Sequence record: MZ398247.1
Source: Enterobacteria phage IME177
Strand: one strand, 5' to 3'
DNA length: 39,224 nucleotides
Program-made: the position numbers and the translations under genes
Notes under the pieces: model-generated
Told to the model about the DNA's origin: nothing
Database searches by the model: none
What the model saw: only the letters and a program-made list of their open reading frames with translations
Shown here: in pieces, positions 4,920 through 39,224 of the stretch
Numbering within the stretch: position 1 is the first letter of the stretch
How the letters are laid out: every line of letters starts with the position of its first letter

Positions 4920-6678
4920 GAAAACACCTGCTGAAAGACAGGCAGAAATGACCCAAAGGATGAGGGATGACTTCGTGTTCTTCATCTTCGTTCTATGGAA
5001 AGCTCTGAGCCTTCCTGTTCCAACACGCTGCCAGATAGATATGTGTAAGAAGCTGGCGGCTGGAGATAATCGACGCTTCATCCTTCAAGCATTCCGTGGT
5101 ATTGGAAAGTCGTTCCTGACCTGTGGTTTCGTGGTCTGGAAGTTATGGAATAACCCGGACTTGAAGTTCATGATTGTGTCGGCCTCAAAGGAACGAGCTG
5201 ATGCTAACTCCATATTCATCAAGCGAATCATCGACCTCATGCCTCAGCTTCAGGAACTCAAACCTAAGCAAGGGCAGCGAGATGCGGTTATCAGCTTCGA
5301 CGTTGGACCAGCCAAGCCAGACCACTCACCTTCGGTTAAGTCCGTTGGTATCACTGGTCAGTTGACTGGTAGTCGTGCTGACATCCTGATTGCCGATGAC
5401 GTGGAGGTTCCAAACAACTCAGCGACTCAGGCTGCACGAGACCGCCTGTCAGAGCTTGTGAAAGAGTTCGACGCTATCCTGAAGCCGGGAGGTACAATCA
5501 TTTATCTGGGTACTCCTCAGAACGAGATGACCCTGTACCGTGAGTTGGAAGGTCGTGGGTACACCACTACTATCTGGCCTGCTCGTTATCCACGAGACAG
5601 AAAGGACTGGCAGTCTTACGGCGACCGTCTGGCACCGATGCTTCAGGCAGAGCTGGAAGAGGACCCTGAGTCCTTCTACTGGCGTCCGACCGATGAAGTA
5701 CGATTTGATGATACGGACCTGAAGGAACGTGAGCTGTCCTATGGTAAAGCTGGCTTCGCTCTACAGTTCATGCTTAACCCTAACCTGAGTGATGCTGAGA
5801 AGTACCCTCTGAAGCTCCGTGACCTTATCGTAGCCGACTTGGACCCAGCGTCTAGCCCAATGGTATACCAATGGCTTCCTAACCCTCAGAACAAGCGTGA
5901 GGACGTTCCTAACGTTGGACTCATGGGTGACTCATACCACACGTATCAGACTGTAGGTTCTGCCTTCAGTTCGTACACCCAGAAGATTCTGGTCATTGAC
6001 CCTAGTGGTCGTGGTAAAGATGAAACTGGTTATGCGGTACTGTCCCAGCTCAACGGCTACATCTTCGCTATGGAAGTTGGCGGTATGCGAGGTGGCTATG
6101 AAGACTCTACGCTGGAAGCCTTGGCTAAGATTGGTCGTAAGTGGAAGGTCAACGAATACGTCATTGAGGGTAACTTCGGTGATGGTATGTACCTTGAGCT
6201 ATTCAAGCCTGTAGCTTCCCGTATTCATCCTGCTGCTGTAACTGAAGTGAAGAGTAAGGGTCAGAAGGAACTCCGCATCTGTGACGTTCTGGAGCCTATC
6301 ATGGGGTCTCACCGACTTATCGTCAACGCTTCTGCTATCGTCCAAGACTACCAGACAGCCTCTGACAAGGATGGTGTGCGTAACCCTATCTACTCTCTCT
6401 TCTATCAGATGACCCGTATCTCTCGTGAACGTGGAGCACTGGCACACGATGACCGACTTGATGCGCTGGCTATCGGTGTACAGTTCTTCGTTGAGTCTAT
6501 GGCTAAGGATGCCAACAAAGGCGAACGTGAAGTCACTGAGGAGTGGCTGGAGGAACAGATGGAGAACCCACGGAAAGGCTTCGAGTCCATCCACACTGAG
6601 TTCTGGGACAATGGGGTCCGGGTAACTCACGATACGGACGACGAGCTGGGGCTAGGGTCCTACGTTACGTTCCACTAG
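4909..6678 (+). CDS. gp19: terminase large subunit (gp19-like), probable GTG start
   Basis: 589 aa; RBS ataaggagg; ...[13 protein letters not shown]..., [40 protein letters not shown] colinear with T7 gp19 as recalled. Confidence 0.93.
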
Positions 6679-8677: not shown

Positions 8678-8893
8678 TGATAACTTACGGTTTATGCCAG
8701 CACCACGTCACCAACGCCCGGATTTTGGTCAAGACCGGGCGGTTAAACCACGAGGAGGCCATGCGTCTCTTGAAAGTGGTCTACAGGAGGCGCAAGCGCA
8801 TACACGACAGCCTACACGCTGAGTGATAAACGAGAGGTCATCTGACTGATAGGTGGCCTCAAAGATTATCACTTACATTGATAGGAGTTAACT

Positions 8894-13125: not shown

Positions 13126-13374
13126 ATGAGCAGACGTTGGGTATTTGATGCGTCCACCAGCCAGTGGTCATCGTTAGGCCGGACACACCGCGAGCTGCGT
13201 GAGGCAGGACTTGAGGTCAGAATGGATGTCCTGCCGTGCTCCGGAAAGACTCTGGTCCTAATCATTGAAGCAGACGGGAAGCCTCTGGTATCCCGCGAGT
13301 TCACCGAACACGAAATCTTTAGCTGTGAGCAATGGTGCTTGCAACAACTGAATGCTTATAGGAGCTGGAAATAA
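13126..13374 (+). CDS. gp1.2-like protein (82 aa)
   Basis: Position between gp1.1 and ligase; size and C-terminal ...SWK similar to T7 gp1.2 (...DWK); weak similarity only. Confidence 0.5.
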   Translation: MSRRWVFDASTSQWSSLGRTHRELREAGLEVRMDVLPCSGKTLVLIIEADGKPLVSREFTEHEIFSCEQWCLQQLNAYRSWK

Positions 13375-14449
13375 TGACTACGACTATTAAAACTAACCCG
13401 CACCGCGCTGTAGATTACTCTGAGTCTGGCGTTAAGAAGGCTTTGGAAGCTGCCGGGTCGCTGGAAGCTGAAGTGAAGTATGACGGTGTGCGTATAAACA
13501 TCCCGGTCTTCCCTACTGGTGAGACCCAATGGTTGAGCCGTGAGTCTAAACCTCTCCCAGCCCTTGAGTGGCTGTCAGTCCTTACCAACATCGACAACAT
13601 CGTCAGGGACCAGCAAAAAGCTAGCGACTGGCGGTGGTTCCTGAAGCAGGCTGGCTACGAAGGCACTGGTCTGATGATTGACGGTGAGGTCATGGTAAAA
13701 GGAGTGGACTTCAATACGTCTTCAGGTCTAGTCCGTACCATGTGGTCAGACACTAAGAACTACGCTTGGAATGGCAACCCAGATGCTGACATCGACACCA
13801 AGAAGAAGCATAAGGTCCCTTTCCATCTGGCAACCGACTACATACGCGTGGTTGTCTACGGTATCGTGGACCTTAACGTCATCCTTGACCCGAAATCCGA
13901 GGTCCTATTCATAGCGTCACACGCCTGAAGGCCGAAGCTATCGTCCCTCTCCTCCAGAAATACTTCCCGGAAATCGACTGGGTTCTGTCTGAGTCACACA
14001 CGGTCTATGACCTTGAGTCGCTCAACTCCCTGTACGAACAGAAGCGTCTGGAAGGACACGAGGGTCTGGTAGTCAAGGACCCGCTTGGTAAATATAAGCG
14101 TGGCAAGAAGTCTGGCATGTGGAAAATGAAGCCTGAGGAGACCATCGACGGGACCGTGTGTGGCCTCGTGTGGGGGACTCCGGGTAAGGCCAACGAAGGT
14201 AAGGTGATTGGCTTTGAGGTTCTGCTTGAGGATGGCATGGTGGTTAACGCCTGTGGTCTGACTGAAGAACAGAAGGATGAGTTTACGGAAGCCTGTAACA
14301 CTGATACATATATTCTCGGTGGAATCAATCCATACGAAGGCTGGCAGTGTGAAGTCCTCTTCATGGAGCGCTTCCCTGATGGTTCCCTTCGTCACCCTAG
14401 CTTCAAGTGCTGGCGCGGGACGGAAGACAATCCAACCGTTAAGAGTTAA
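13374..14449 (+). pseudogene. gp1.3: ATP-dependent DNA ligase (gp1.3-like) with reading frame interrupted: N-terminal ORF 13374-13928 and C-terminal part in the -1 frame (open 13889-14449)
   Basis: N-part has ligase motif I EVKYDGVR and is colinear with T7 ligase; C-part (...PLLQKYFPEIDW...EGHEGLVVKDP...GSLRHPSFKCWRGTEDNP) continues the alignment in another frame. Adding one base near 13924-13926 (cc run) restores a ~370-aa ORF. Confidence 0.8.
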
Positions 14450-14458
14450 CTAAATGTC

Positions 14459-14493
14459 AACCCAGTGGTCTTCGGACTGCTGGGTTTCTTTGC
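14459..14493 (+). terminator. rho-independent terminator (TE-like, early terminator after ligase)
   Basis: aacccagtggtcttcggactgctgggtttctttgc: GC stem with UUCG loop followed by U-rich tract; T7 TE is also directly after gene 1.3. Confidence 0.65.
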
Positions 14494-14531
14494 TTGTGCT
14501 AGCAAGCTATCGTCTGGGCCACCAGCTGGAC

Positions 14532-14554
14532 CCTAAGCTATCACTATAGGACAA
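14532..14554 (+). promoter_or_regulatory. phage RNA polymerase promoter (phi1.5-like), predicted +1 at 14549
   Basis: cctaagctatcactataggacaa. Confidence 0.75.
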
Positions 14555-14578
14555 CCATCAACAACCTAAGGAGACTCT

Positions 14579-14833
14579 ATGTCTAAGAACTTAATGTTCA
14601 ACCGTTATACCGATACCTTCCACCTGTCCAACAACCCGTTCGCTTGCATTAAGCGAAACGAGAAGCTGGGCTACTTCGGGAAGGCCGTTAAGCTGTCACC
14701 TACAGTCTACGCTCTGATTACTCCGGGTAAAGCTGAAGAGGCCAGCCAGAAGCGTGAGGCCAACGTACCCGTGGTCTACACCAAGTGGCCTCGCGTTCGT
14801 CTGTTCGTTGAGGTCGTGAAGGAGATGTTCTGA
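14579..14833 (+). CDS. hypothetical protein (84 aa; gp1.6 position)
   Basis: ORF with RBS ctaaggag; position equivalent to T7 gene 1.6. Confidence 0.55.
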   Translation: MSKNLMFNRYTDTFHLSNNPFACIKRNEKLGYFGKAVKLSPTVYALITPGKAEEASQKREANVPVVYTKWPRVRLFVEVVKEMF

Positions 14834-14901
14834 CGGGATGTATAGCTTGCTTAGAGAAAGATGACCGTTACCCACATACATGCAATAAAGGAGCTAACAA
14901 T

Positions 14902-15371
14902 ATGAACGCACTTGAACAAGAGATTATCATTAAGTTGGTAGATAATAACGAAGGTCGCCCAGATGATTTGAATGGCTGCGGTATTTTCTGCCATAATGTC
15001 CCTTGCTACCTCTGTCCTGTAAATATCAATAAAAAGATAACCTTAGGTGAAATCCGAGCGATGGACATACGTAAGCCTAAACTGGAGAAACCAGAGGTAA
15101 CTACTACAGACGACCAGCCTTACGCTAAGGCTATCGACGACGTACGCAAGCCGTCCCACTATCAGTCTTTGACGGTGTGGAGTCCATTGAGATTATCGCT
15201 CGGTCCCTGACTGTCAGCGAGTTCCGTGGTTTCTGCATGGGTAACGTCCTGAAGTATCGACTCCGAGCTGGTAAGAAGTCCGAGCTGGCTACTATGGAGA
15301 AGGACCTGAACAAAGCAGCCTTCTATCAGGAGCTGTTCGACCTACATAGCGGTAAGTGCTATGACGCGTGA
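14902..15371 (+). pseudogene. gp1.7: gp1.7-like protein (putative nucleotide kinase) split into two overlapping ORFs (14902-15210 and 15177-15371) by a 1-nt frame disruption at a T run (15168-15170)
   Basis: N-part has Cys-rich CGIFCHNVPCYLCP; C-part ...IEIIARSLTVSEFRGFCMGNVLKYRLRAGKKSEL. Inserting one T in tcttTgac joins them into one ~155-aa ORF. Assignment to gp1.7 is by position and recalled similarity. Confidence 0.6.
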
Positions 15372-15588
15372 AGAACTTAAAGCTGTAGGGGTGAAGCGTA
15401 GAGCGCTCAGTTTTTACCGAGCATACAAGGCGCTACGTAAGGGTATGTTAGCGTTCTCATTAGGACACAGTGAGTATTATGACTCTGACCTCCTACCGTT
15501 TGCTTATATGAAGACTCCTAGTATGATTATTAGGGTAGAGGAGTATGACCATTCTGACGACTGTGTAATGGTGAACCGATATGCTTAA
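15361..15588 (+). CDS. hypothetical protein (75 aa)
   Basis: ATG overlapping the end of the preceding ORF; no motif recognised. Confidence 0.45.
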   Translation: MTREELKAVGVKRRALSFYRAYKALRKGMLAFSLGHSEYYDSDLLPFAYMKTPSMIIRVEEYDHSDDCVMVNRYA

Positions 15589-15675
15589 ACCGAGTGAGTG
15601 GTGCCGGGAGATGTACGAGAAGACTCTCAACCCGGACTACATTACGTTATACAACCAATGGAAGGAGCGTGGTCT

Positions 15676-15795
15676 ATGAACCAAGACCAGATTAACTTTG
15701 TGTGTCAGCTTATTAAGGAGTTCGTGGACTTCACTGATTTATCCGAAGAGGAACTTGTTAAGCTGGAAGAGATTCTCGACAAGGAGATTTTATGA
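15676..15795 (+). CDS. small acidic protein (39 aa); start uncertain (track ORF begins 15598)
   Basis: ATG with RBS ggag 9 nt upstream; stop overlaps gp2 start (ATGA). Confidence 0.35.
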
Positions 15796-15950
15796 CTGAG
15801 GTTGAGAAGAAGTACATCGTGGAGCTTGAGGGACGCGTTCAGTCCTTCGAGGTTCCGTTGTACGCAAAGTCTCTTGAAGAGGCTACCCTGAAGTCCCAAG
15901 AGTATGAGGACGCTGGTTTTGTGGTCGGTCGGATTCGTCCTGAGACCTAA
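15792..15950 (+). CDS. gp2: host RNA polymerase inhibitor (gp2-like)
   Basis: 52-aa ORF below track cutoff; [14 protein letters not shown]...[10 protein letters not shown] resembles T7 Gp2 (SFEVPIYAETLDEA...GFEVTRVRP as recalled); position before SSB. Confidence 0.65.
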
Positions 15951-15968
15951 ACTATCACTGTAGGACAG
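15946..15968 (+). promoter_or_regulatory. variant phage promoter (phi2.5-like), TCACTGTAGG core, predicted +1 at 15963
   Basis: cctaaactatcactgtaggacag; A to G change at -3 relative to the window consensus. Confidence 0.6.
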
Positions 15969-16007
15969 ACGTCCAGTTCGTAACTTTAAAATAGGAGATT
16001 TACACCG

Positions 16008-16706
16008 ATGGCTAAAGAGCAACTGAAGACTTTCACCACTCCGGTAGCTGGTATCGTTGAGCCTTACGCATGGCTGAACAAAGCAGACACCAAGTTTAAC
16101 GAGCGTGGTGAGCATAAGGTTAACCTGACATTCGACCTGAGCAACCCGAAGGTCCGTAAGATGATTGACGTCTTACAGAAGATTCACGACGATGCGTATG
16201 CGAAAGCACTTGCAGACCACGAGAAGAACCCACCTCAGGTTCAGCGTGGCAAGAAGCCTATTGAACCACGAGAAGGCGACATGCCGTGGATTGAGAATGG
16301 TGACGGTACTGTTACCATGAAGTTTAAATGCTTCGCGTCTTACCTGAAGGATGGTAAGTCAGAGCCTATCATATTACGGTTCTACGACACCGATGCTAAG
16401 TTAATCCGTGACGTCCCGAATATTGGCGCTGGCTCAAAGCTGAAGGTCAAGTTTAAAGTCCTGCCGTTCAAGTGGAACGCTGCGACTGGTGCAAGCGTTA
16501 AGCTCCAGCTTGAGTCCTGCCTTCTGGTAGAACTGAAGGAGTGGAAAGGTGATGGTGCTGGTGGCGATGGTGGCTGGGGTGATGATGAAGACCTCGGTAC
16601 TGGCTACAAAGCGTCAACCGATGGTGACTTCGGGTCTGATGACTTCGGTGACGATGGTTCCGAAGGTGGGGATGACTCCAACTCTGGTGGCGATTACGAC
16701 TTCTAA
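16008..16706 (+). CDS. gp2.5: single-stranded DNA-binding protein (gp2.5-like)
   Basis: 232 aa; GASVKLQLES and acidic C-terminal tail ending DYDF match T7 gp2.5 (ends DGDF as recalled). Confidence 0.93.
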   Translation: MAKEQLKTFTTPVAGIVEPYAWLNKADTKFNERGEHKVNLTFDLSNPKVRKMIDVLQKIHDDAYAKALADHEKNPPQVQRGKKPIEPREGDMPWIENGDGTVTMKFKCFASYLKDGKSEPIILRFYDTDAKLIRDVPNIGAGSKLKVKFKVLPFKWNAATGASVKLQLESCLLVELKEWKGDGAGGDGGWGDDEDLGTGYKASTDGDFGSDDFGDDGSEGGDDSNSGGDYDF

Positions 16707-17158: not shown

Positions 17159-17628
17159 TGACTCAGAAATATAGACTTAAGGTTAGTTGCTACGGGTGGC
17201 CTAAAGGTACTATCGTTACGAAATGTGAGAAAGACCCTGCACCAATATTCGGACTTACTCTGGTGGAATCCACTGAGCGTGGCAAATACAAACACGGAGC
17301 AGCAGGTTATAACACTCAGCCTGATGGTATGTGGGGGGCGTGGGTTGTAAACGAAAATCTTGAGGAAATCGTAGAGGATAAACCTCAAGTCCTGCCAGCC
17401 TCAAGCGTCCCTCCCGTCACCGTTAAACGTGAAGTCCTGACCATCAACAAGATTGGTGTAGGTCAGACGTTCATCGTCCACGGTAAGCCTGACGAAGTGT
17501 ACGTGAAGATTAGTAACTCTCACGTCTTCAACCATAAGTTGCTCCAGATGCACACGACTGACGCACATCGCTTCCAGTCACATCTGAATCTAGTGGTCGT
17601 AGAATTGGTGGTGTACAATGGTAAGTAA
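17158..17628 (+). CDS. hypothetical protein (156 aa), accessory ORF between endonuclease I and lysozyme
   Basis: ATG overlapping gp3 stop (TGATG), RBS aaaggag; no T7 gene occupies this position; no motif recognised. Confidence 0.6.
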   Translation: MTQKYRLKVSCYGWPKGTIVTKCEKDPAPIFGLTLVESTERGKYKHGAAGYNTQPDGMWGAWVVNENLEEIVEDKPQVLPASSVPPVTVKREVLTINKIGVGQTFIVHGKPDEVYVKISNSHVFNHKLLQMHTTDAHRFQSHLNLVVVELVVYNGK

Positions 17629-28690: not shown

Positions 28691-29740
28691 ATGGCAAACG
28701 TTCCGGGTCAGAAAGTAGGTACAGACCAAGGTAAAGGCAAATCTGGTTCCGACGCTCTGGCGTTGTTCCTGAAGGTCTTTGCTGGCGAAGTCCTGACCGC
28801 ATTCACTCGCCGCTCTGTAACTGCTGACAAGCATATTGTCCGTACAATTCAGAACGGTAAGTCTGCTCAGTTCCCGGTCATGGGTCGCACCTCTGGTGTG
28901 TATCTGGCTCCGGGTGAGCGACTGTCCGATAAGCGTAAAGGTATCAAACATACCGAGAAAACAATTACCATTGATGGTCTGCTGACTGCCGATGTGATGA
29001 TTTTCGACATTGAAGACGCGATGAACCACTATGACGTGGCTGGTGAGTATTCCAACCAGTTGGGTGAAGCTCTGGCTATCGCTGCTGATGGTGCGGTTCT
29101 GGCTGAAACGGCTCTCTTGTGTAACCTCCCAGCTGCATCCAACGAGAACATCGCTGGTCTGGGTACTGCGTCCGTACTGGAAGTTGGTACGAAAGCTGAC
29201 CTCAACACCCCGGCTAAACTGGGCGAAGCAATCATCGGTCAACTGACCATCGCTCGTGCGAAACTGACCTCCAACTACGTTCCTGCTGGCGACCGTTATT
29301 TCTATACAACGCCGGATAACTATTCTGCAATCCTCGCGGCTCTGATGCCGAACGCTGCTAACTATGCTGCGCTGATTGACCCAGAGACTGGTAACATCCG
29401 TAACGTAATGGGCTTCGTGGTTGTTGAAGTCCCACACTTGACTCAGGGTGGTGCTGGTGAAACTCGTGGTGATGATGGTATCACTATTGCGACTGGTCAG
29501 AAGCACGCCTTCCCAGCTACTGCTACTGGTAATGTTAAAGTTGCTCTGGACAACGTTGTGGGCCTGTTCTCTCACCGTTCTGCTGTGGGTACTGTGAAGC
29601 TTCGTGACTTGGCGCTGGAACGTGACCGTGACGTTGATGCTCAGGGCGACCTGATTGTTGGTAAGTACGCTATGGGTCACGGTGGTCTGCGTCCTGAAGC
29701 GGCGGGTGCGCTGGTTTTCACAGCAGCGTCAGCGGGCTAA
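28691..29740 (+). CDS. gp10A: major capsid protein (gp10A-like)
   Basis: 349 aa, codon usage typical of highly expressed gene (cgt/ctg/ggt rich); strong RBS ataggag; follows phi10-like promoter and precedes Tphi-like terminator. Confidence 0.96.
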   Translation: MANVPGQKVGTDQGKGKSGSDALALFLKVFAGEVLTAFTRRSVTADKHIVRTIQNGKSAQFPVMGRTSGVYLAPGERLSDKRKGIKHTEKTITIDGLLTADVMIFDIEDAMNHYDVAGEYSNQLGEALAIAADGAVLAETALLCNLPAASNENIAGLGTASVLEVGTKADLNTPAKLGEAIIGQLTIARAKLTSNYVPAGDRYFYTTPDNYSAILAALMPNAANYAALIDPETGNIRNVMGFVVVEVPHLTQGGAGETRGDDGITIATGQKHAFPATATGNVKVALDNVVGLFSHRSAVGTVKLRDLALERDRDVDAQGDLIVGKYAMGHGGLRPEAAGALVFTAASAG

Positions 29741-30006: not shown

Positions 30007-30046
30007 AAACCCCTTGGGTGCCTTCGGGTGCTTGAGGGGTTTTTTT
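30007..30046 (+). terminator. rho-independent terminator (Tphi-like)
   Basis: aaccccttgggtgccttcgggtgcttgaggggttttttt, very similar to T7 Tphi (AACCCCTTGGGGCCTCTAAACGGGTCTTGAGGGGTTTTTTG as recalled). Confidence 0.9.
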
Positions 30047-36504: not shown

Positions 36505-39224
36505 ATGGCGACTCGTGGTATTCGCAATAACAATCCGGGTAACATCCGGGTAAGTAAGGACCAATGGGAAGGAATGACTGGAGATGATGGCGCATTCGTC
36601 ACCTTCGATAGTCCAGAGTCTGGCGTCCGAGCTTTAGGTAAAAACCTGCTGTCCTACGGTCGCCGAGGTTATGACTCCATCGAGAAGATTATCAACCGAT
36701 GGGCACCTCCTAACGAGAACGACACTAAGGCTTATATCGACTCAGTGGTGGCTGCAACTGGTATTCCAGCTACCCAGAGTCTCGACCTATCGGACCCTGA
36801 CACCCTGTCTTCTCTGGCTCAAGCTATCAGCTTCCATGAGACAGGCTCCCGGTACGACCCTGAAGTCTATCAGAAGGGAGTCGCACGAGCGCTCAATGGC
36901 ATTAGCCCAAAGACTCCACCAGTAAGCGCTAACGTATTTGACGCACTCACGGAAGGACTCAAGGCTAAACCTAAAGTAGCTCTTGGTGAGAACCTTCCGA
37001 CCGCTGCTGGTCTAAACATTGAGGGTCAAGCACCTGAAGCTCCCAACGAATCGTTCGGTGAGATGTTCTATAAGTCTACTGGCGAGACCATGCAGGAACG
37101 AGAGGATCGCTCTACGTGGTTCGGTTTCGGTGCTGCTACAGAAGCTGAAGTGAAGAACTCTATGGTAGGCGTGGCTATCCGCGCTGGGCAGACAGAGGAC
37201 TCACTTGATGTCATTGGCGATGTGTTCAACCCGACCCGCTGGAACAACCATAAGTGGACTCGTGAAGAGCTTGACCAGATTCGTAACGCTGGGGTTCTGC
37301 CTCAGTATTACGGAGTCATTACTGGTGGCTCCCCTCAGAACCTGACCGAGCTTATTAACTTGGCGCTTGAGAACCAGAAGTTGGACCAAGAGAAGGCCAA
37401 GGCTGGGACTGGTGCTCAGTTAGCTGCTGGTGTGATTGGCGCTGGTGTAGACCCTCTGACATACGTTCCTATCGCTGGACAGGTTGGTAAAGGCGGTAAG
37501 CTGGTCAACAAGATGTTCACCGTGGCTGCTCAATCTGGAGCACTGGCTGGTGTGTCCGAGATGGCCCGTACCTCAGTGGCTGGTGGTGATGCTCATGTGG
37601 CTGAAGCTATCCTTGGTGGTGCTCTCTTCGGTGGTGGTATGACTGCTATCGCTGATGGGTTAGGCAGAGCCTTAGGTCGCAACACTAATGAGTTTGCTGG
37701 CCCAGCTACACGTCTGGAAGCTCGTGAGACCGCTCGTAACGTTGATGGTCAGGACCTGTCTCGTCTCCCTATTCAGGAAGGTGAGCAGACCTTTAGTCAT
37801 CAAGGCGTTAAGTTCGCTGACGTTCCGAACGAGCCGGGTAGTGTACGACTGGAAGATGGTTCAATCCTGATTGGTGAGAACCCTCTGAACCCTAAGACAC
37901 GTCAAGTCTTTGATGAAGTGATTGAGCCTGAACGTGCCGCTGCTGGTGTGAACCTTGGTGGGCTTACTGAGATTGGCCTGAAGCTGCTTCGGTCAGAGAA
38001 CCCTGAGATTCGTGGAGTCGCTGCTGACTTAGTGCGTTCACCAACTGGTATGCAGTCAGGGGCCTCAGGTAAAATCGGGACCACTGCGTCAGACGTATTT
38101 GAGAGACTTCGTGCTGTGGACCATCGGTTCTACAACGACATCGACGACGCGGTTACTGAGGCGCTCAAGGACCCATACTTCCAGACAGCATTCTGGCGAG
38201 ACTCTGGCGCATTCCGTCAGGACATCTACCAGCGTGTGTCTATGGCTATTGAAGACGGAAGTGGGAACCTGAAGGCTGAACTGACTCCGGGAGAACTGAA
38301 AGTATATGACCTGCTGAAGAACCAGTTTGACGCCAAGCGTGAGATGATGGAGAACCCGGCGATGTTTGGTCGTCCAGACGCTCAGTCTATCTTTCCGGGT
38401 AGCCGCTTCAAGGGAACCTACGTCCCGCATGTGTATAGCAACCAGATGAAGGAGCTGTACATCAAGGAGCTTGGGAGTCCAGAGGCACTACAGGAGGCCA
38501 TCAAGAAGTCATGGTTGACCAGCTATGCGTCTCGACCTGAGGTCAAGAAACGTGTGGACGAGGCACTCTTAGAGGCTGACCCTACGTTGACTCCAGAAGG
38601 ACTTGCGGCTGCGGTCGATAAGTACGCCAACGATAAGGCTTATGGTATCTCTCACACCGAGCAGTTCGAGCGTTCATCCGTAATGGAAGAGAACATCAAT
38701 GGTCTGGTGGGTCTGGAGAACAACAGCTTCCTTGAGGCTCGTAACCTGTTCGATAGCGATATGTCAATCGTCCTACCTAACGGTCAGACCTTCAGTGTCA
38801 ACAACCTGCGTGAGTGGGACATGGACAAGATTGTCCCGGCCTACAACCGTCGAGTTAATGGCGATATTGCTATCATGGCTGGTACAGGCAAGACCACGAA
38901 GGACATGAAGGACTTGGTTGAGACCATGATGAACAAGGCTGGGGATGACGGTAAGTTGAAAGGTGAAGTATCTACCTTACGTGACACCTTGAAGATTCTA
39001 ACTGGTCGTGCTCGACGTGATGGCGCTGATGATGCAGCCTTCGCTACCGTGATGCGCACAATGACAGACCTATCGTTCTTCGCTAAGAATGCCTACATGG
39101 GTGTTCAGAACTTAACGGAGATTGGTGGTATGCTGGCTCGTGGCAACGTTCGTGCAATGCTGCATCAGAACTTAACGGAGATTGGTGGTATGCTGGCTCG
39201 TGGCAACGTTCGTGCAATGCTGCA
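36505..39224 (+). CDS. gp16: internal virion protein D (gp16-like) with N-terminal lytic transglycosylase-like domain; 3' part continues at window positions 1-1228
   Basis: ATG 36505 after taaggag; ...SPTGMQSGASGK..., ...SRFKGTYVPHVY..., ...YGISHTEQFERSS..., ...NGDIAIMAGTGKTTKD... colinear with T7 gp16 as recalled; frame open to window end. Confidence 0.93.
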   Translation, partial: MATRGIRNNNPGNIRVSKDQWEGMTGDDGAFVTFDSPESGVRALGKNLLSYGRRGYDSIEKIINRWAPPNENDTKAYIDSVVAATGIPATQSLDLSDPDTLSSLAQAISFHETGSRYDPEVYQKGVARALNGISPKTPPVSANVFDALTEGLKAKPKVALGENLPTAAGLNIEGQAPEAPNESFGEMFYKSTGETMQEREDRSTWFGFGAATEAEVKNSMVGVAIRAGQTEDSLDVIGDVFNPTRWNNHKWTREELDQIRNAGVLPQYYGVITGGSPQNLTELINLALENQKLDQEKAKAGTGAQLAAGVIGAGVDPLTYVPIAGQVGKGGKLVNKMFTVAAQSGALAGVSEMARTSVAGGDAHVAEAILGGALFGGGMTAIADGLGRALGRNTNEFAGPATRLEARETARNVDGQDLSRLPIQEGEQTFSHQGVKFADVPNEPGSVRLEDGSILIGENPLNPKTRQVFDEVIEPERAAAGVNLGGLTEIGLKLLRSENPEIRGVAADLVRSPTGMQSGASGKIGTTASDVFERLRAVDHRFYNDIDDAVTEALKDPYFQTAFWRDSGAFRQDIYQRVSMAIEDGSGNLKAELTPGELKVYDLLKNQFDAKREMMENPAMFGRPDAQSIFPGSRFKGTYVPHVYSNQMKELYIKELGSPEALQEAIKKSWLTSYASRPEVKKRVDEALLEADPTLTPEGLAAAVDKYANDKAYGISHTEQFERSSVMEENINGLVGLENNSFLEARNLFDSDMSIVLPNGQTFSVNNLREWDMDKIVPAYNRRVNGDIAIMAGTGKTTKDMKDLVETMMNKAGDDGKLKGEVSTLRDTLKILTGRARRDGADDAAFATVMRTMTDLSFFAKNAYMGVQNLTEIGGMLARGNVRAMLHQNLTEIGGMLARGNVRAML
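39105..39224 (+). repeat. perfect 60-bp tandem direct repeat (2 copies, 39105-39164 and 39165-39224), in frame within gp16, ending exactly at the window end
   Basis: Both copies read tcagaacttaacggagattggtggtatgctggctcgtggcaacgttcgtgcaatgctgca; encodes a duplicated 20-aa segment QNLTEIGGMLARGNVRAMLH that T7 gp16 has once. Confidence 0.9.

Follow-up and report, generated by a model that had tools for sequence, protein, structure and literature searches.

The region from 13374 to 14449 of the Enterobacteria phage IME177 record (MZ398247.1; all 39,224 nucleotides of which were analysed and are referred to below as the window) is, judged from its sequence, an ordinary T7-type gene 1.3 encoding an ATP-dependent DNA ligase, the reading frame of which is broken in the record by the loss of a single A at 13900/13901. 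What the gene is, where the lesion lies, that the lesion is restricted to the window sequence and that recoding signals are missing are all established here. On present evidence the missing A is probably, by a modest degree, a consensus or assembly error, and the phage itself would make an intact ligase of 358 residues; the same holds for a G missing from gene 1.7 a little further downstream.

The ligase gene and its broken frame

The features of the ligase locus, all on the plus strand, are as follows.

13374..14449, plus strand: gene 1.3 DNA ligase, 358 aa with one A restored, assigned from nucleotide identity to Escherichia phage HC12, the match to 1A0I and Pfam.
13374..13928, plus strand: N-terminal ORF as written, 184 aa, consisting of 176 native residues followed by VLFIASHA and ending at a TGA at 13926-13928.
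13900..13901, plus strand: site of the missing A, in the codon for Glu176; GAAGG in relatives, GAGG here.
13901..14449, plus strand: out-of-frame remainder of the ligase, residues 177-358, with motif IV (EGLVVK), motif V (MWKMK) and the OB-fold domain.
14117..14449, plus strand: the only ORF with a start codon in the C-terminal frame, 110 aa, with motif V and the OB domain and lacking motif IV.
13126..13374, plus strand: upstream gene, 82 aa, at the position labelled dGTPase inhibitor (gene 1.2) by RefSeq in relatives.
14459..14486, plus strand: terminator-like hairpin and T-tract 3' of the ligase, where EcoDS1 has its annotated TE terminator.

An initial annotation, made from the letters of the sequence, had described a 184-residue N-terminal ORF containing KYDG, and this ORF is present at 13374-13928 with the KYDG of motif I at residues 34-37, aligned to the KYDG of 1A0I. 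The second frame is open from 13889 to a stop codon at 14447-14449 and encodes the rest of the ligase. When the ligases of phages vB_EcoP-R1 (R1), pO2 and HC12 were used as tblastn queries, each gave two matches in two frames, which met at 13889-13901; together with the two ORFs, these matches indicate that the frame disruption is real, as is the overlap of the two frames at 13889-13928 that had been proposed. A base inserted anywhere in 13889-13925 would join both frames, and the site was located by alignment with HC12, YZ1 and EcoDS1, in which a single column is gapped in the window only, the relatives reading TCCGAAGGTCC and the window TCCGAGGTCC. The initial annotation was thus right that one base is involved, but had placed the lesion near 13924-13926, in a CC run, where the alignment points to an A at 13900/13901. 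The passage from frame 0 to the C-terminal frame at 13900/13901 corresponds to a −1 shift.

With the A restored, the protein is 358 residues long, rather than the approximately 370 residues first estimated. It matches T7 DNA ligase (1A0I) over residues 4-348 with an E-value of 1.7e-101, in agreement with the earlier proposal of colinearity with T7 gp1.3, and it matches PF01068 over positions 9-204 of 204 (78.5 bits) as well as PF17879, both above their cut-offs. The Pfam and 1A0I matches together argue that the likeness to ligase is not a chance resemblance. In the sequence as written, the 204-position PF01068 profile is divided between the N-terminal ORF (positions 9-102) and the second frame (130-204), and only with the A restored does one polypeptide contain the complete adenylation domain. 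Similarly, the PF17879 OB-fold domain lies in the shifted frame (95-98 bits) and joins the adenylation domain only when the A is put back. Alignment to 1A0I shows that the 184-residue fragment contains motifs I (KYDG), III (DGE) and IIIa and lacks motif IV, motif V and the OB domain. If the sequence were translated as written, synthesis would stop at 13926-13928, producing a presumably inactive 184-residue fragment that contains the adenylated lysine of motif I. The C-terminal frame (residues 177-358) is 98.4% identical in amino acid sequence to the ligases of HC12 and R1, and the peptide DPKSEGPIHSVTR would fall within a full-length ligase of ~41 kDa.

The gene has the features of the T7 gene 1.3 ligase (1A0I), including the KYDG, DGE, EGLxxK and WKMK motifs, the OB domain and both the PF01068 and PF17879 domains, but differs in being broken after codon 176 and, as written, would be predicted not to encode an active enzyme. 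The restored protein is 98.3% identical to the HC12 ligase (URY99446.1, OL362275), which differs in that its gene reads GAAGG at the site and is an uninterrupted ORF of 357 residues. The gene occupies the same position as in EcoDS1, with a small ORF preceding it and the TE terminator and gene 1.6 following, and the synteny of the locus is kept with HC12, YZ1, EcoDS1 and R1. The ligase ATG overlaps the stop codon of the 82-residue upstream gene (TAATG), an arrangement that is the same in relatives.

Relatives of the window and distribution of the deletion

Megablast places the window in the genus Kayfunavirus (Autographiviridae, Studiervirinae), a group of T7-like coliphages, with no record identical to it. 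Nucleotide identity to HC12 in the ligase region is 96.1%, whilst R1 is 96.5% identical to the first 25 kb of the window and pO2 is 99.0% identical to its last 14 kb. The early region is mosaic (13374-14560 versus 14560-16700): the ligase is near-identical to HC12 over ~13527-14492, and R1 reaches only ~52-82% identity to the window at 13500-13900; in contrast to this HC12-like ligase tract, 14884-16300 is near-identical to R1.

Across the 966 nucleotides of 13527-14492, the window differs from HC12 by three substitutions and the one-base deletion. A query of 86 nucleotides spanning the site matched 87 nucleotides in each of the full-span phage matches listed, from a set of 45 INPHARED records with at least 80% query coverage. 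When both alleles were allowed for in a pattern search, only the wild-type form, of 35 nucleotides, was recovered, in eight IMG/VR and five metagenome contigs, and the bacterial genome collection gave no match; a shared deletion allele elsewhere was therefore rejected, since IMG/VR, the metagenomes and INPHARED carry the wild-type form only. At the protein level, a tblastn search with the restored ligase found it in one piece in the best 60 of 1297 records, and 1291 of the 1297 covered at least 80% of it; among the more than 90 relatives examined, none has a ligase in two pieces. That the deletion is private to a sequence so nearly identical to HC12 implies that the event is either extremely recent or absent from the phage.

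A Logan contig from a different Kayfunavirus (ERR11438929; 40,484 nt) has an RNA polymerase identical to that of the window over all 893 residues, and contains an intact ligase of 351 residues and a likewise intact gp1.7 of 179 residues. Searches for products exactly matching the truncated ligase, the truncated gp1.7 and the tail spike of the window gave no match.

Gene 1.7 and frame-breaking indels across the genome

The initial annotation had stated that a second gene has the same problem, and this gene was identified as gene 1.7.

14902..15371, plus strand: gene 1.7 nucleotide kinase, frame-broken, with one G missing at 15165/15166 (CAGGTC to CAGTC).

Restoring the G gives a protein of 156 residues like that of R1. 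The deletion is the sole difference from R1 over 424 nucleotides (14884-15307), and relatives in which the motif was found all have the wild-type site. Placement of the two deletions at mosaic or recombination junctions was considered and rejected, as each lies well inside a tract near-identical to one relative. In one IMG/VR sequence (IMGVR_UViG_2974604219_000001; 40,291 nt), the C-terminal domain of gp1.7 occurs twice in tandem, in different frames, at 4965-5700.

To survey indels, the complete annotated protein sets of R1, pO2 and HC12 were used as tblastn queries, and every gap in the alignments was listed. Genome-wide, the only frame-breaking indels are those in the ligase gene and gene 1.7. 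A single additional base at position 8843, absent from R1, pO2 and HC12, falls between small ORFs in a part of the early region that is variable. The homologues of classically essential T7 genes are all intact by tblastn (19 of 19). These homologues amount to ~27.3 kb of coding sequence, against ~8.5 kb of other coding sequence, from which the probability that two random coding errors would both miss essential genes is ~0.057.

The deleted bases sit in AA and GG pairs and not in long homopolymers. Runs of at least five nucleotides inside genes are intact, including a G6 at 17333 that is in frame, and there are thirteen runs of five nucleotides. These intact homopolymers give no support to homopolymer-driven platform error, whilst leaving error as such possible. 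The longest homopolymer in the window is an intergenic run of seven Ts at 30040-30046, which varies from six to eight Ts among relatives. Both deleted bases fall within a wild-type AGGTC; the probability of a shared 5-mer or longer, estimated post hoc by simulation, is ~0.045-0.075, and this shared context is too weak, being post hoc, to be used as evidence.

Record error or recent null mutation

The initial annotation had offered a pseudogene, a sequencing or assembly error and a split gene as explanations; the first two remain, whereas a split gene is disfavoured by a break that lies inside the nucleotidyltransferase domain. From sequence alone, a consensus error is given slightly better than an even chance, and a genuine and recent null allele a substantial chance that falls short of even.

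According to the reading preferred here, it is the record, and not the phage, that would have lost the base. Two indels set against three and zero substitutions relative to HC12 and R1, which are independent isolates, are unlike natural divergence in conserved coding DNA and favour error. Both lesions are single-nucleotide deletions, a typical form of residual consensus error. Also in favour of error, the deletion allele is found in none of the 45 phage records, eight IMG/VR contigs and five metagenome contigs, the ligase is intact in essentially all relatives, and the family does include error-laden records, such as ON528733, in which the DNA polymerase is annotated as ‘nonfunctional’. Against error, both of the frame-breaking indels in 39 kb hit genes that T7 or T3 can lose, and the deletions fall in 2-nt runs with the G6 and the 5-nt runs intact, which is atypical for platform error driven by homopolymers. 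The suggestion that a second frameshift raises the chance of error is accordingly a reasonable one, but it cuts both ways, both genes being ones that T7 can lose.

The window also resembles an unfinished assembly, in that it is circularly permuted and has a 60-nt tandem duplicate at the circular junction. In this permuted form gp16 leaves the right end and resumes at position 2; HC12 has its physical ends at a point that corresponds to ~7372/7373 of the window. The segment 39165-39224 is an exact tandem copy of 39105-39164, inside gp16 and in frame (20 codons); gp16 continues at position 1 directly after the duplicate, and R1, pO2 and HC12 have a single copy. The duplicate is either an artefact of assembly circularisation or a real duplication of 20 residues that broke the assembly graph.

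Alternatively, the phage may truly lack the A, in which case it would have no functional ligase and would use the NAD-dependent ligase of the host, and gene 1.7 would be a second real knockout. This explanation is credible, if somewhat less probable than error in the record. Loss of the ligase is tolerated by T7 or T3 (PMC2696425), as is loss of gene 1.7 (PMC7697293), and a viability filter predicts what is observed, namely that the two frame-breaking indels fall where T7 or T3 can do without the gene and that all 19 homologues of essential T7 genes are intact; the low probability (~0.057) of hitting both sites by random error and the location of the deletions in 2-nt runs, not long homopolymers, point the same way. 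However, relatives almost without exception retain an intact ligase, and pooled knockouts group T7 g1 to g2.5 as essential, although genes 1.3 and 1.7 are unnamed there (PMC11482910); both observations suggest that a null allele should be rare and short-lived. In addition, a genuine null requires two independent private frameshifts on a branch with almost no substitutions, which would need selection or luck.

Selection is conceivable for gene 1.7, since T7 gp1.7 is reported to activate the defence protein Avs5 (PMC11897194) and its real loss could be selected for that reason. For the ligase, a preprint ascribes the ability of PhiKMV-type phages to resist DNA-targeting nucleases to ligase-dependent repair (bioRxiv 10.64898/2026.09.21.753257), which points to a benefit of keeping the ligase. 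The most elaborate version of the null reading supposes that both deletions are real and selected, so that a wild Kayfunavirus lineage would just have lost its ligase and its nucleotide kinase, the loss of gp1.7 being an escape from a sensor such as Avs5 and that of the ligase a hitch-hiker or an escape from a hypothetical sensor of phage ligase; this scenario is improbable. To our knowledge, losing the phage ligase confers no comparable selective advantage, and this weighs against a genuine null.

If the deletion were real, the phage would resemble T3 and T7 from which the ligase has been deleted, which are viable on a ligase-normal host, dependent on host ligase and less fit (PMC2696425). 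It would differ in that those are laboratory deletions, made in studies of compensatory evolution, whereas the window has a candidate spontaneous point frameshift in a Kayfunavirus.

Recoding and split-gene explanations

That anything is programmed at the ligase break is very unlikely. The first such possibility, that full-length ligase arises by a programmed −1 ribosomal frameshift or by transcriptional slippage, is highly improbable, even though a −1 slip directly after the GAG at 13899-13901 would recreate the wild-type protein sequence and gene 10 of T7-like phages does employ −1 frameshifting, with GGTTTTC present in the window at 29713-29719. The ligase overlap shares with T7 gene 10A/10B the two overlapping frames and the −1 shift needed to join them, but gene 10 has a T7-type slippery heptamer, whereas the ligase overlap lacks a slippery site, structure and conservation. 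Read codon by codon, the frame-0 sequence of the overlap is GAC CCG AAA TCC GAG GTC CTA TTC ATA GCG TCA CAC GCC TGA, and 13889-13925 contains no X XXY YYZ heptamer and no run of A or T for RNA polymerase slippage. The minimum free energy of the 126 nucleotides at 13885-14010 is −27.5 kcal/mol, compared to a mean of −29.4 kcal/mol for shuffled sequences (z +0.55), which offers no stimulatory fold, and an Rfam scan gave no match at E-values up to 1. Recoding was rejected on these three grounds, namely the lack of a slippery heptamer, the z-score and the lack of an Rfam match; furthermore, the two-frame arrangement occurs in none of the more than 90 relatives, so that there is nothing conserved about it.

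At the capsid gene (28691-29740), the GGTTTTC at 29713-29719 is in frame near the end of the gene, and an open −1 frame runs to 30003, resembling the T7 10A/10B arrangement.

Equally improbable is a functional split gene, in which two separately translated polypeptides would form an active ligase: both halves are indeed ligase-like, with 98% amino acid identity to relatives, but this high identity is explained by the lesion being so recent, the break interrupts the adenylation domain, falling between motifs IIIa and IV instead of where that domain meets the OB domain, and no relative has a split ligase. For 228 nt, from 13889 to 14117, no ATG, GTG or TTG occurs in the second frame, so that residues 177-247, which include motif IV, would not be made by independent initiation, and the ORF that begins at 14117 lacks an obvious ribosome-binding site. 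A split ligase was rejected from this absence of a second-frame start before 14117 and from the break within PF01068.

Implications

The break in the ligase is a commonplace one-base frameshift affecting a familiar gene, and does not represent a new gene arrangement. For annotation, the appropriate label is a gene 1.3 DNA ligase, frameshifted at 13900/13901 and marked either as a pseudogene or with the remark ‘sequence needs checking’; descriptions as a split ligase, a recoding site or a pair of novel ORFs should be avoided. A real deletion would make the phage a naturally occurring case of a T7-like virus that relies on the ligase of its host, which would be of limited biological novelty given that laboratory mutants of T7 and T3 have already shown this dependence to be possible.
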